DNA of 64,000 nt from an uncultured Alphaproteobacteria bacterium (GTDB taxonomy: Bacteria > Pseudomonadota > Alphaproteobacteria > Rhizobiales > Beijerinckiaceae): positions 27,369 through 91,368 of the forward strand of contig CAVYXQ010000028.1 in NCBI GenBank assembly GCA_963772555.1. Reading direction: 5' to 3'. Below the pieces are notes generated by a model. That model worked only from the letters and a program-made list of their open reading frames with translations, was not told where the DNA came from and did no database searches. The translations under genes and the position numbers were made by a program. Of the stretch, positions 818-4,932 are shown piece by piece. How positions within the stretch are numbered: the stretch's first letter is position 1; each line of letters starts with the position of its first letter.

Positions 818-849
818 TTGACTCCGGACCATGGTACGGACGCTAACCC
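818..849 (+). promoter_or_regulatory. MerR-type promoter/operator
   Basis: TTGACT (818-823), dyad TCCGGACCATGGTACGGA (823-840), candidate -10 TAACCC (844-849); the extended 19-20 bp spacer is typical of MerR-family promoters. Confidence 0.8.
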
Positions 850-868
850 CCATGGCCGGAGGCGAGAG

Positions 869-1315
869 ATGGGCGCGCGCAGAACGATCGGCAAACTGGC
901 GAAGGAGGCCGGCGTCGGGGTCGAGACGGTGCGCTTCTACGAGCGCAAGGGCCTGATCGACCAGCCGCTGTCGGGCGAAGGCTATCGCGACTACGGCGAC
1001 GAGACGCTGGCGGCGGTCCGCTACATCAAGATCGCGCAGAAGATGGGCTTCAGCCTCGCCGATGTCGCCAGGCTCCGCGGCAAGCTCAAGGAGGGCCCGG
1101 GATTCTGCGAGGCGGTGAGGGCGACGGCGCGGCGGCGGCTCGAGACGATCGAGGGCGAGATCGCCGAACTCCGCCGGTTGCAGACCGAGCTGACCGCCTT
1201 TCTCGACCGCTGCGGGCGTCGCTCGCCCGATGCCCCCTGTTCCATTCTCACCGAACTTGCCGCGCTCGACAAAGCCGCGCGGCCGAGACAACGCCAAGGA
1301 GGCCATCGAGCATGA
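869..1315 (+). CDS. MerR-family metal-responsive regulator (Hg(II)-MerR-like)
   Basis: TIGKLAKEAGVGVETVRFYERKGLI HTH; Cys at FCEAVR plus a C-x8-C loop (CGRRSPDAPC); ATG 869 after a GGAGG RBS. Confidence 0.9.
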   Translation: MGARRTIGKLAKEAGVGVETVRFYERKGLIDQPLSGEGYRDYGDETLAAVRYIKIAQKMGFSLADVARLRGKLKEGPGFCEAVRATARRRLETIEGEIAELRRLQTELTAFLDRCGRRSPDAPCSILTELAALDKAARPRQRQGGHRA

Positions 1316-1857
1316 GCATGAATTCCGCGCCGCCGGCCGACGGCGCCCTGATGCTCATCGATTTCCAGGCCGATTTTCTGAACGACGACGGACGGATGCC
1401 GGTCGCCCGCGCCCAGGTTGCGCCCTCGATCGCCGCGGCCGCCGGGGCGCTCGACCTGTTCCGGCGACACGGGCGGCCGGTCATCGCCGTCGGCAACGAG
1501 TTTCGCCGCGGCGACATCGTGATGAACCTGCTGCGCCGCTACGCCAGCATCGAAGGCTCGCCGGGCGCGCGCTGGGACGATCGCCTGCCGCTCGAGGGCG
1601 TCAGATATTTTCCCAAATGGGGCGGCAGCGCCTTCGGCAACCGCGAGCTCGAGCCGTGGCTCAAGCGCCAGGGGATCGGCACGCTCGTCATCGGCGGCCT
1701 GATGGCGCGCGCCTGCGTCAGTGCGACGACCAAGGACGCGATCGCGCGCGGCTTCCGCGTCATGCTGATCGAGCCGGCGATCGCCTGCGCGAGCGACCGT
1801 TCCCGAGCCCGCGCGTTGGCGCGGCTGGAGCGCCGCGGCGCGGCGGCCTTCGCCTGA
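1312..1857 (+). CDS. Cysteine hydrolase (isochorismatase/nicotinamidase family)
   Basis: LIDFQADF (Asp), FPKWGGSAF (Lys), GLMARACVSAT (Cys) catalytic triad motifs; ATGA overlap with the merR stop. Confidence 0.88.
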   Translation: MSMNSAPPADGALMLIDFQADFLNDDGRMPVARAQVAPSIAAAAGALDLFRRHGRPVIAVGNEFRRGDIVMNLLRRYASIEGSPGARWDDRLPLEGVRYFPKWGGSAFGNRELEPWLKRQGIGTLVIGGLMARACVSATTKDAIARGFRVMLIEPAIACASDRSRARALARLERRGAAAFA

Positions 1858-1948: not shown

Positions 1949-3400
1949 TCAGCGCTTCATCCGGATCATGAAGTCGACCACCCGGCGCGAAAATCCGCCA
2001 TAGGGCGGCTGCAACAGCATCTGCACCGCCGACAGGCGTCCCTGCTGGAACACCGGGCGCAGCTTCGAGAACGTGTTGAAGCCTTCGCGGCCGTGATAAT
2101 GGCCCATGCCGCTCGCGCCCACCCCGCCAAAGGGCAGGTCGTGCTGGGCGATGTGCAGGATCGCCTCGTTGACCGAGACGCCGCCCGAACGGGTCTGCGC
2201 GATATAGAAGTCGCGCGTCGCGGGATTGTTGGTGAAGGGATAGAGGGCGAGCGGCCGGTCGGCGGCATTGATCGCGTCGACGACCTCCTGCGGCCGATCG
2301 TAAAGCTCGACCGGCAGGATCGGGCCGAAGATCTCGCGCCGCATGATCTCCATGTCGGCGGTCGGCTCGAGAACGAGGTGCGGCGGGAACTTGCGCTTCG
2401 CCGCGTCGGGCGTCTGCCCCTCGGCGAGATCGATCAGGGTCGCCCCCTTGGCGCGCGCGTCGGCGAGCGCCGCGGTCAGCCGGTCATAGGACCGCTGATC
2501 GATGATCGAGGTGAAGTCCGGCCCGTTGATGTCTGGATAACGCTTGGCGAACAGCGCGCGGCAGTGGGCGATGAATTCGCTCTCCGAGCCGCGCGGCAGG
2601 AAGACGTGATCGACCGCGAGGCAGACCTGGCCAGCGTTGAAGGTCTTGGCCCACAGGATGCGCTCGGCGGCGGTCTTGATCGGGAAGTCCGGCGCGACGA
2701 TCGCCGGCGATTTGCCGCCGAGCTCGAGCGTCACCGGCGTCAGGTTGCGCGCCGCGCTGGCCATCACCGCCCTGCCGGTCTGGCCCGAGCCGGTGAAGAT
2801 CAGATGGTCGAACGGCAGCGACGAGAAGGCCGGGCCGCGGCCGCCGCCGTCGGCGAAAAACGCGAGCTTGTCGGCAGGGAAATATTTCGGCGCCGTCTCG
2901 ATCATGAGTTCGGCGAGACGCTGCGAGTTCTCCGACATCTTGACCATCGCCCGGTTGCCGGCGGCGAAAATGCCGACGAGCGGCGCGAAGCTCAGCTGCA
3001 GCGGAAAATTCCACGGCACGATGACGCCGACGACGCCGAGCGGCTGCGGGATGACGCGGTTCTTGGCGCCGGTGAAGACCAGCTGATCGACTTTGCGGCG
3101 GCGCGGCTTCATCCAGCCGCCGACACGCTTGACCGCGTCGTGGACGCCATCGAGCACGGAAAAGATTTCGCCGAACGTCGTCTCGAACGCGCTGCGATTG
3201 CCGTAGTCGGCGTTGATTGCCGTGACGATCGCCGCCTGATTGTCCTTCACCAGCCGGCCGAGCGTCTTGAGATCGGCGACCCGCGCGGCGTGCGAGGGCT
3301 CCGGCGCTTTCAGAAAAGCGGCGCGCTGCGCCGCAAGGCAGGCCTGGAATTCGGCCGGAATGGCGATGTCGGGAAAGGCGAATGCGGGCGCGTTCATCAA
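1949..3400 (-). CDS. Aldehyde dehydrogenase (coniferyl-aldehyde dehydrogenase-like)
   Basis: IVPWNFP, FTGSGQTG, LELGGKSP, NAGQVC, EIFGPILP, PFGGVGASGMG motifs. Confidence 0.92.
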   Translation of the reverse strand: MMNAPAFAFPDIAIPAEFQACLAAQRAAFLKAPEPSHAARVADLKTLGRLVKDNQAAIVTAINADYGNRSAFETTFGEIFSVLDGVHDAVKRVGGWMKPRRRKVDQLVFTGAKNRVIPQPLGVVGVIVPWNFPLQLSFAPLVGIFAAGNRAMVKMSENSQRLAELMIETAPKYFPADKLAFFADGGGRGPAFSSLPFDHLIFTGSGQTGRAVMASAARNLTPVTLELGGKSPAIVAPDFPIKTAAERILWAKTFNAGQVCLAVDHVFLPRGSESEFIAHCRALFAKRYPDINGPDFTSIIDQRSYDRLTAALADARAKGATLIDLAEGQTPDAAKRKFPPHLVLEPTADMEIMRREIFGPILPVELYDRPQEVVDAINAADRPLALYPFTNNPATRDFYIAQTRSGGVSVNEAILHIAQHDLPFGGVGASGMGHYHGREGFNTFSKLRPVFQQGRLSAVQMLLQPPYGGFSRRVVDFMIRMKR

Positions 3401-3548: not shown

Positions 3549-3881
3549 ATGTCGCTCTACATGTACCAGTTCGCCTATACGCCCAATTCCTGGGCCGCGC
3601 AGATCAAGCACCCGGAAAATCGCATCGAAAGCGTCGGTCACAAGAGCTGCGAGGCCGCCGGCGGAAAGTTCATCGGCGGGTGGCTGTGCTTTGGCGAATA
3701 CGACGCCGTGCTGATCGCAGACATGCCGAACGAGGAGAGCATGGCCGCGATGGCGCTGGCGATCGCCGCCGGAGGGGCGCTCAAGGCCAGCAAAACGACA
3801 CAGCTTATCTCCGGCGCCCAGGGCGTCGAGGCTCTGAAGAAAGCGGCGCATGTCGCAAAGACCTATAAGCCGGCGCATTAG
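3549..3881 (+). CDS. GYD-domain protein
   Basis: 110 aa with the family pattern (GGKFIGGWLCFGEYDAVLIADMP...TTQL); GGAAG RBS. Confidence 0.8.
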   Translation: MSLYMYQFAYTPNSWAAQIKHPENRIESVGHKSCEAAGGKFIGGWLCFGEYDAVLIADMPNEESMAAMALAIAAGGALKASKTTQLISGAQGVEALKKAAHVAKTYKPAH

Positions 3882-4086: not shown

Positions 4087-4932
4087 CTAACCACCTGCCA
4101 GTCCCGTCCGCTGCTCGGCCACGGCGACCGCGAGCGTCATCGCGAGGCAAAAGGTCGCCGCGAGCGAGCGGAACTTGCCGAAGTCGCTCTCGACGATCTC
4201 GAAGCGGACGTCGGCGAGGCCGGCGAGCGGCGACAGCGCGCTGTCGGTGACGACGACGGTCGGCACGCCGCTTCGCCGGGCGCGCCTGGCGAAGTCGAGA
4301 GTGAACGGCGAATAGGGCGCGAAGCTGATGGCGATCAGCGCGTCGCCCGCGCCGGCGCCGGCGAACTGTTCCGGGCCGAGGCCGCCGACGTTGTCGATGA
4401 GGCGCGCCTGGACGCCGAGCTGCGCCAGCGCATAGGTCAGGTAGTGGGCGACGCTGAACGAGCGCCGTTGGCCGAGGCAATAGATCGTCTCTGCCCGGGC
4501 AAGGAGCCCGATCGCCCGGTCGAGGTCGCGCCGCTGCACGCCTTCGCGCAGGCGGGCGATCGAGGCGGCTGCCGAATCGGCGAAGCCGTTGAGCAGGCTC
4601 GTCGGGTCGCCGCTGTCGCGCGCCTTCTCGTGCAGCGCCTTGAGGCGTTCGGAATAATCGGGCCAGCGGTTGCGCAGATGCGAGCGAAACACTTCCTGCA
4701 GGTCGGAGAAGCCGGCGAATCCGAGGGTCTGGGCGAAACGCACCAGGGTCGAGGCTTGCACGTCGGCGCTGCGCGCGATGGCCGAGGCGGTGCCCAGAGC
4801 GAATTCGTCCGGATGTTCGAGCGCATAGGTCGCCGCCTGCCGGAGCCGCTTGGGCAGATGCGGCTCGATCTCGATCAGACGGCCCTTCAGCGCCTCGAAA
4901 CTGTCCGGCGGCTCCGTGAGGTCGCTATCCAT
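4087..4932 (-). CDS. MurR/RpiR-family regulator (IolR-like)
   Basis: N-terminal HTH (VQASTLVRFAQTLGFAGFSDLQ) and SIS domain (CLGQRRSF, ISFAPYS, VVVTDSALSPL). Confidence 0.9.
   Translation of the reverse strand: MDSDLTEPPDSFEALKGRLIEIEPHLPKRLRQAATYALEHPDEFALGTASAIARSADVQASTLVRFAQTLGFAGFSDLQEVFRSHLRNRWPDYSERLKALHEKARDSGDPTSLLNGFADSAAASIARLREGVQRRDLDRAIGLLARAETIYCLGQRRSFSVAHYLTYALAQLGVQARLIDNVGGLGPEQFAGAGAGDALIAISFAPYSPFTLDFARRARRSGVPTVVVTDSALSPLAGLADVRFEIVESDFGKFRSLAATFCLAMTLAVAVAEQRTGLAGG

Follow-up and report, generated by a model that had tools for sequence, protein, structure and literature searches.

A MerR-like regulator gene overlaps a cysteine hydrolase gene behind a mer-type promoter

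The window, by which we mean the whole 64,000-nucleotide stretch of DNA that was analysed (contig CAVYXQ010000028.1, positions 27,369 to 91,368 of the forward strand, assembly GCA_963772555.1), derives from an uncultured alphaproteobacterium of the Beijerinckiaceae. Close to its start it carries a gene for a MerR-like regulator of 148 amino acids (869-1315, plus strand), followed by a gene for an isochorismatase-family cysteine hydrolase of 181 amino acids (1312-1857, plus strand). An earlier examination of the letters alone, referred to below as the sequence-only reading, had described an ATGA overlap between merR and a gene for an amidohydrolase with a cysteine nucleophile. The overlap is real and lies at 1312-1315 on the plus strand, where the stop of the first gene and the start of the second coincide, and translational coupling of the two genes is predicted. 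A Shine-Dalgarno sequence for the hydrolase gene, AAGGAGG (1296-1302, plus strand), is located within the 3' end of merR, and gene calls give the same 4-bp overlap in three related loci (L049, L050 and L138). Upstream of the promoter, a sugar-type ABC permease gene ends at position 725. An aldehyde dehydrogenase gene on the minus strand (1949-3400) converges on the pair from downstream and thus limits the unit to two genes. The gap between the two converging genes contains a GC-rich inverted repeat lacking a T-run (1916-1940), which could possibly act as a terminator hairpin shared by both. In a compositional island test, the GC content of the pair (0.68-0.72) equals that of its flanks.

The promoter region in front of merR contains a -35 hexamer, TTGACT (cTTGAC; 818-823, plus strand), that is identical in Tn21 and near-invariant across 11 aligned relatives. 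The over-long spacer of 19 nt (824-842) contains the dyad TCCGGAC-CATG-GTACGGA (823-840), a predicted MerR operator of 7-4-7 organization that is 91% complementary and kept in all loci of the regulator clade described below. The -10 element CTAACC (843-848, plus strand), downstream of which transcription is predicted to start, aligns with TAAGGT of Tn21, and its T and A are invariant among the 11 aligned upstream regions; the alternative -10 element TAACCC (844-849, plus strand) would give a spacer of 20 nt. A Shine-Dalgarno sequence for merR, GGAGG, is present at 858-862 on the plus strand, with a GGAG-type block found in 10 of the 11 relatives. The only conserved blocks upstream of the gene in these relatives are TTGACTCCGTACC-N-TGGTACGG-N3-nTA, the ribosome-binding site and the ATG. 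Apart from the over-long spacer, the -35 and -10 elements of the window fit the alphaproteobacterial sigma-70 consensus CTTGAC-N17-CTATAT (PMC2873474). A generic scan for promoters and terminators returned no hit and no canonical terminator in this region; as its promoter part allows spacers of 16-18 bp only, the scan is uninformative on a 19-bp MerR promoter.

The promoter points into merR itself, as the sequence-only reading had stated. Its additional view that this arrangement, instead of a divergent one, is an oddity does not stand, since many genuine mer operons are merR-first and co-directional, making the layout of the window ordinary. In three loci of the Alteromonas/Pseudoalteromonas type (L164, L171 and L184), merR-merT-merP-(merC)-merA all lie on one strand, and in these merR-first operons as well as in that of Bacillus megaterium (4UA1) the promoter-operator also reads into merR. 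Transport and reductase genes follow downstream in those operons, whereas a single isochorismatase-family gene follows in the window. Because the promoter reads into merR, autoregulation would be positive when inducer is present.

The operator is of the canonical mer type and has no strong counterpart elsewhere in the genome

The sequence-only reading had compared the operator with the Tn501/Tn21 merT promoter and arrived at about 19 matches in 25 positions. When the window was set against an actual Tn21-type merT promoter, TTGACTCCGTACATGAGTACGGAAGTAAGGT, read from plasmid NZ_CP053738, and the initial 25 bases were compared one by one, 19 again matched, and the Tn21 promoter has its dyad at the same offset and the same 19-bp spacer as the window. 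The signal described for proteobacterial MerR proteins consists of a promoter with a 19-bp spacer and the 7-4-7 palindrome TCCGTAC-(4)-GTACGGA (PMC1526738), from which the dyad of the window differs by one base.

To locate further targets of the regulator, a weight matrix was built from the operators of 10 relatives, leaving out the window and its near-copy L001, and both strands of the whole genome (6.25 Mb, 98.9% complete) were scanned. The operator of the window is the top match with 40.2 bits. The best of the remaining independent sites, with 17.8 bits, falls within a large repetitive open reading frame (C7:178818) and was rejected as a second operator. Two other matches to a loose dyad pattern were rejected as operators on account of their 3- or 5-bp centres. 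With one strong site in the genome, the regulator apparently acts on its own operon and on no other target.

No gene for mercury transport or reduction had been seen in the window, and the absence extends to the whole genome, where MerT, MerP, MerC and any MerA above cut-off are lacking; MerB also returned no match, in a search run without a positive control. Neither a stronger operator nor a mer operon thus occurs elsewhere in this genome; the sequence-only reading had named stronger operators at a true metal-resistance operon as a finding that would refute it, and this objection falls away. MerA above cut-off and MerT are likewise absent from each of the six pair-carrying genomes checked (that of the window and five others). 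Elsewhere in its genome, the window organism encodes a true CueR (164 bits), a CueR/CadR-like protein and a SoxR-like protein.

The regulator retains the three mercury ligands and the loop length of MerR

The regulator matches the Pfam families MerR_1 (PF13411, 60 bits), MerR (PF00376) and MerR-DNA-bind (PF09278), and its best sequence matches in the PDB are the Hg-bound MerR of Tn501 (5CRL, 80 bits) and the MerR of Bacillus megaterium (4UA1, 67 bits). The best NCBIfam model is TIGR02051 MerR with 102.5 bits, below the equivalog cut-off of 150.85; the same model gives 183.7 bits for Tn21 MerR and 111-118 bits for the clade relatives of the regulator. The models for ZntR (83-84 bits), CueR (74 bits) and CadR/PbrR (TIGR02047, 63.2 bits against a cut-off of 151.45) all remain below their cut-offs, and the NmlR model reaches only 34 bits.

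Three cysteines, Cys80, Cys115 and Cys124, are spaced by 35 and then 9 residues. That this spacing resembles C82/C117/C126 of the mercury-sensing MerR had been noticed from the letters, and a HMMER alignment places all three residues on the three Hg ligands of 5CRL. Cys80 aligns with C82 of Tn501 MerR and C79 of the Bacillus protein at the N-terminal end of the dimerization helix. All 68 of the closest homologues have the first and the second of these cysteines, and 67 of them have the third. An AlphaFold model of the regulator (pLDDT 88.8) contains helices at residues 7-14 and 18-26, a long helix at 77-117 and a last helix at 125-137. The long helix contains Cys80 close to its N terminus and Cys115 towards its C terminus, and Cys124 immediately precedes the last helix. 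The top fold match of the model is 5CRL, while PbrR691, CadR and CueR yield similar TM-scores. This topology agrees with that described for MerR (PMC4551924).

The putative metal loop, C115-GRRSPDAP-C124, is of the Cys-X8-Cys type. An 8-residue loop accommodates tridentate Hg, which the 7-residue loop of CueR does not (PMC4551924). MerR proteins further possess a specific conserved loop lysine at position +4, Lys118 in B. megaterium MerR (PMC4551924); the window regulator has Ser119 at this position. At loop position +3 it carries Arg, as do 39 of its 68 closest homologues, with Lys in another 16 (Arg/Lys in 55/68). The residue after the last cysteine is Ser, found in 18 of these 68 homologues, with Pro in 45.

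Set against MerR of Tn21/Tn501 (5CRL, TIGR02051), the regulator thus shares the winged-helix domain, an identical recognition-helix motif VET(I/V)RFY-RKGL, the three aligned ligand cysteines and the 8-residue loop. It is about 38% identical to that protein, falls below the equivalog cut-off and, unlike it, lacks Lys at loop +4 and has Ser in place of Pro after the last Cys. The units also differ, the window having merR first and co-directional, a hydrolase as cargo and no merT, merP or merA in its genome. The Pb(II) sensor PbrR/PbrR691 (5GPE) and CadR share the short metal-sensing MerR fold with the regulator (TM ca. 0.7-0.8). Against the regulator, PbrR 5GPE scores 45 bits compared with 80 bits for 5CRL, and PbrR and CadR, unlike the window regulator, control efflux ATPases. 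The operator of PbrR/CadR differs from the mer-type operator. PbrR has three cysteines with the same 35/9 spacing, so that the triad alone is no proof of Hg specificity.

The cargo gene encodes a distinct isochorismatase-family hydrolase

The assignment of the second gene is supported by a match of 90 bits to Isochorismatase (PF00857; gathering score 27), in line with the cysteine-nucleophile amidohydrolase of the sequence-only reading. All 30 homologues compared share its catalytic triad, Asp17-Lys102-Cys135, and Cys159 is almost invariant among them. An invariant family-specific motif, GNEF-x3-D-x3-N-x2-R...G-x2-G-x2-W, spans residues 61-88 (G61, N62, E63, F64, D68, N72, R75, G82, G85 and W88). 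The segment is modelled at low confidence and probably represents a substrate lid. The overall AlphaFold model (pLDDT 88.7) superimposes on 3O93, 3KL2, 3EEF and 3S2S with TM-scores of 0.77-0.84.

Fold relatives at a TM-score of ca. 0.8 comprise nicotinamidases, a carbamoylsarcosine-amidase relative, biuret and triuret hydrolases and NicF. The hydrolase has the same fold and Asp-Lys-Cys triad as nicotinamidase PncA, N-carbamoylsarcosine amidase, biuret hydrolase BiuH, maleamate amidohydrolase NicF and YcaC, from which it is set apart by 21-29% identity, its own lid motif and the lack of the nicotinamidase His ligands. None of the NCBIfam equivalogs applies, with BiuH, PncA, YcaC and RutB far below their cut-offs. 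An identity as PncA was rejected on a score of 37.9 bits against a cut-off of 174 and on the missing His ligands: in place of the Asp/His/His metal site, the segment dwHpenH of 1ILW aligns with EFRRGDIVMN, which contains no His. RutB, BiuH and YcaC were rejected on their scores. An enzyme with a cysteine nucleophile would be an odd response to a thiol poison, which counts against the metal switch proposed below.

The pair is conserved and its two genes co-diverge

The search of other genomes suggested by the sequence-only reading, for merR and an isochorismatase gene behind the same dyad, recovered at least 13 loci in which the pair and operator occur together, with a tight or overlapping junction and with different flanks each time. 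These comprise L001/L053 (94% identical MerR), L046-48, L049/L055/L144, L050, L056 (Roseiarcus), L058, L059, L061, L063 (Bradyrhizobium manausense SZCCT0118) and L134, L138 and L146 (Sphingomonadales). Carriers are found in Bradyrhizobium, Roseiarcus, Sphingomonadales and metagenome-assembled genomes (MAGs), and identity among the loci falls to ca. 47-50% for MerR and ca. 55% for the hydrolase.

In a tree of the hydrolase, a single clade (support 95/93) takes in every MerR-paired copy and additionally includes two copies adjoining decayed merR remnants (L057 and L064), one TetR-coupled copy and three unpaired ones. The two subclades of this hydrolase clade mirror the two subclades of MerR. A single hydrolase clade with mirrored subclades suggests that the capture took place once, that the two genes were inherited together thereafter and that the regulator was lost now and then. 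More distant homologues from Actinomycetota, Acidobacteriota and Nitrospirota are not accompanied by a MerR, and the neighbours of hydrolase homologues without MerR show no recurrent partner, in a scan at the level of open reading frames that is too noisy in these high-GC loci to be informative. One such homologue, the TetR-coupled one, adjoins ars-like genes, and some of the pair loci adjoin genes for AhpC/AhpF or glutathione peroxidase. The clade is rare, being present in one of 301 sampled genomes of the order, that of the window itself, which renders phyletic profiling powerless.

As the pair and its operator recur amid different flanks and the two genes co-diverge, the coupling of merR and hydrolase is, on comparative sequence evidence, functional. 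The earlier proposal is supported in so far as the pair forms a self-contained and self-regulated MerR-type unit with the cysteine hydrolase as its only co-transcribed output, co-transcription being predicted. Recurrence and co-divergence also decide the case of a decayed mer operon with an unrelated hydrolase gene as its neighbour. Such a relic could be imagined because merR-first mer operons exist and regulator decay does occur in the family, as seen from the remnants in L057 and L064. It is contradicted by the recurrence of the overlapping pair, amid varying flanks, in 13 or more loci at MerR identities down to ca. 47-50%, by the joint divergence of the genes, by the lack of mer linkage throughout the clade and by a GC content equal to that of the flanks, and was rejected as very improbable on the conservation and co-divergence of the pair.

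The regulator belongs to a MerR branch with non-mer cargo

In a maximum-likelihood tree of MerR proteins, the hydrolase-linked regulators share a clade with the MerR proteins of Terriglobia and of a Caulobacteraceae MAG (support 100/99, stem length 0.73), apart from Tn21 MerR and from the MerRs adjacent to merT, merP or merA. The window regulator therefore sits in a well-supported clade separate from that of Tn21 MerR. The sister MerRs have the same operator, for example TTGACTCCGTACTTTACTACGGAGTTTAGAAT, and their loci encode a secreted SnoaL_4/DUF4440 protein, the gene for which may follow merR, precede it in the same operon or be transcribed divergently from it. In L002, the mature form of this protein contains no Cys. 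The SnoaL_4/DUF4440 protein as alternative cargo is without obvious link to metals, an observation that does not favour a metal-responsive clade.

A Phe before the first ligand cysteine, in the motif F-C-x-x-[VLA]-[RK], marks the clade. A cargo census was taken on a sample of 80 further MerR loci among the matches listed, eight of which carry the marker. The cargo is the hydrolase in L144 and L146 and the SnoaL protein in L145, L147, L148 (Gemmatimonadaceae) and L149; L151 and L179 have neither and look atypical. Mer genes adjoin none of the eight marker-bearing MerRs, while many marker-less loci of the same 80-locus sample are mer-linked. An efflux pump or metal chaperone linked to the clade was not found in the loci examined. 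As judged from tree and gene neighbourhood, the clade is a distinct and conserved branch of MerR with non-mer cargo consisting of one of two small enzymes. A search of the accessible literature on MerR with isochorismatase or DUF4440 and on orphan merR found no description of the module.

The operon likely functions as a metal switch with a non-mer output

We favour, with a probability of roughly 0.55, a two-gene and self-activating metal-switch operon whose inducer is most likely Hg(II) and whose output is an enzyme unrelated to mer functions. A MerR-like dimer would occupy the mer-type 7-4-7 dyad, with a good -35 element on one side and a weak -10 element on the other, 19-20 bp apart, and would keep the promoter off. 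Cys80 of one subunit and Cys115 and Cys124 of the other would together clamp a thiophilic ion, in all likelihood Hg(II). By analogy with the MerR proteins of Tn501 and Bacillus, the metal-bound protein may then distort the DNA and untwist the spacer, allowing RNA polymerase to transcribe merR and, by translational coupling, to bring about expression of the isochorismatase-family cysteine amidohydrolase. The operon would be the only target of its regulator in the genome, and we infer an output in the form of an intracellular enzyme acting on a small amide instead of metal transport or reduction. The DNA distortion, the inducer, the substrate and the physiological role are the parts of this model that we infer, while the anatomy, the conservation of pair, operator and cysteine triad, the one strong operator site and the lack of mer genes are observed. 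The roles that the sequence-only reading had suggested for the hydrolase, a thiol sink or a substitute for a metal-poisoned amidase, are conjectural.

Strict retention of the Hg-ligand positions, together with the loop length and the mer operator, makes a soft metal, and Hg(II) in particular, the likeliest inducer. The long branch of 0.73, the score below cut-off, the missing Lys at loop +4 and the Ser in place of Pro count against this assignment. Given the sub-threshold profile score, the altered loop and the long branch, a different thiophilic metal or metalloid is a real alternative, and sensing of electrophiles a lesser one. The regulator may also have been captured for a new ligand, as the sequence-only reading had suggested; near-complete retention of the triad weighs against this, the score below the equivalog cut-off and the replaced Lys at loop +4 in its favour. 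An operon of the same architecture could thus respond to Cd, Pb, Zn, Au, Cu/Ag or As(III), with the mer operator kept and the metal preference changed, an alternative that we regard as serious if clearly less probable. Besides the sub-threshold equivalog score and the distance from mer-linked MerRs, it could account for a loop that differs from the canonical one (P-D in the middle, Arg at +3, no Lys at +4; PMC4551924), for the TM-scores of PbrR691, CadR and CueR being similar, and for the one TetR-coupled hydrolase homologue beside ars-like genes. Retention of all three cysteines and the 8-residue loop is harder to accommodate, at least for copper, the sensors of which have two Cys and a 7-residue loop (PMC4551924), and the MerR profile exceeds those of ZntR, CueR and CadR/PbrR by 18-39 bits. 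In the loci examined, the clade is moreover not linked to efflux pumps or metal chaperones, and the genome already possesses a true CueR.

The cysteine triad might instead sense thiol-reactive electrophiles or oxidants such as quinones, aldehydes or disulfide stress, with the hydrolase or the SnoaL-like enzyme detoxifying a compound of this kind. This would explain why the cargo proteins are small-molecule enzymes and not metal-handling proteins, and AhpC/AhpF or glutathione peroxidase genes do lie beside some of the pair loci; with neighbours differing in every locus, however, these adjacencies may be due to chance. The known MerR sensors of thiols or electrophiles (NmlR/AdhR type) rely on a single, different Cys and have no metal loop, and the NmlR model reaches only its low score on the window regulator. 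A metal site would be expected to conserve just what is strictly conserved here, the three Hg-ligand positions and the length of the loop, and we therefore consider sensing of electrophiles improbable.

Returning to the metal switch, the recurrence of the two-gene module in soil Alphaproteobacteria without mercury-resistance genes suggests an unstudied response to mercury-like metals. A bolder extension, which we put forward only as a speculative proposal, is that the whole clade constitutes a mer-independent response of soil bacteria to mercury, organomercury or another soft metal, both types of cargo being previously unrecognised metal-stress enzymes. Such enzymes might supply the cell with a metabolite that binds metal, by synthesis or by release, or might attack a metal-organic compound directly by way of the invariant Cys135 and the near-invariant Cys159.

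MerR is the paradigm of a metal switch and its gene is usually read as a marker of a mer resistance operon. In the clade described here, the ligand set of Hg sensors and the canonical mer operator are retained in genomes without genes for mercury transport or reduction. If the clade responds to Hg(II), bacteria of uncontaminated soils would possess a so far unknown branch of the mercury response, and matches to 'merR' in metagenomes would overcount mer operons. If the inducer is another one, the clade would provide a natural change of ligand on an unchanged DNA site, useful for the design of biosensors. In addition, the module offers a regulatory handle on the function of an uncharacterised isochorismatase subfamily. 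One carrier, Bradyrhizobium manausense SZCCT0118, is cultured, which makes the question of the inducer directly testable.

Regulators and cargo at related loci

Decayed merR remnants stand 5' of homologues of the isochorismatase-family hydrolase at two loci from other genomes, L064 (1930-3037) and L057 (2218-3028). At both, nothing of merR survives except the stretch encoding the N-terminal HTH, which is fused or out of frame, indicating that the regulator was lost after the pair had formed. In one close hydrolase homologue, the MerR is replaced by a TetR regulator to which the hydrolase is translationally coupled (L136:3331-6519). This TetR-hydrolase unit adjoins an ars-like cluster consisting of a low-molecular-weight phosphatase/ArsC-type gene, a MIP channel, a methyltransferase and an ArsR-type HTH.

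The cargo varies as well. Among sister MerRs, members of the same clade as the window's regulator, a secreted SnoaL_4/DUF4440 (NTF2-like) protein replaces the hydrolase under the same mer-type operator (L002:3947-4918, L003, L004:3250-4438, L140, L142, L145, L148 and L149). Its gene is located downstream of the sister merR, upstream of it within the operon (L004) or divergently (L140), and the mature form of the L002 protein is devoid of Cys. An Acidobacteriota MerR variant (L179:2880-3974) possesses a perfect mer dyad (TTGACTCCGTACTATAGTACGGAGGTTAGGCT), yet its loop is shortened to C-X5-C; a 188-amino acid Cys-rich ORF with the motifs GGCGDFCRRLGCGH and ECCPFF is found 3' of it.

Alteromonas, Pseudoalteromonas, Paraglaciecola and Glaciecola carry genuine mer operons (L164, L171, L184, L187-L189 and L213) in which merR is the first gene and precedes merT-merP-(merC)-merA co-directionally.

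Operator matches and MerR-family genes in the same genome

The second-best match to the clade operator matrix in the window's own genome lies outside the window on the minus strand of contig C7 (178818-178848; TTGACTGCGGACCGTGGGACGGATC, 17.8 bits). It sits within a large repetitive ORF and is probably a chance match. Other metal/redox MerR-family genes outside the window are present at C22:114189-114560, C23:42365-42736 and C34:20858-21166, and the proteins encoded there are a true CueR (164 bits, exceeding the cut-off), a CueR/CadR-like protein under every cut-off and a SoxR-like protein bearing CIGCGCLSIDKC.

Within the window, a 110-amino acid ORF (3549-3881; starting MSLYMYQFAYTPNSW) is located shortly downstream of the aldehyde dehydrogenase gene. 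A 281-amino acid ORF on the opposite strand (4087-4932) encodes what we take to be a putative RpiR/SIS-type regulator.
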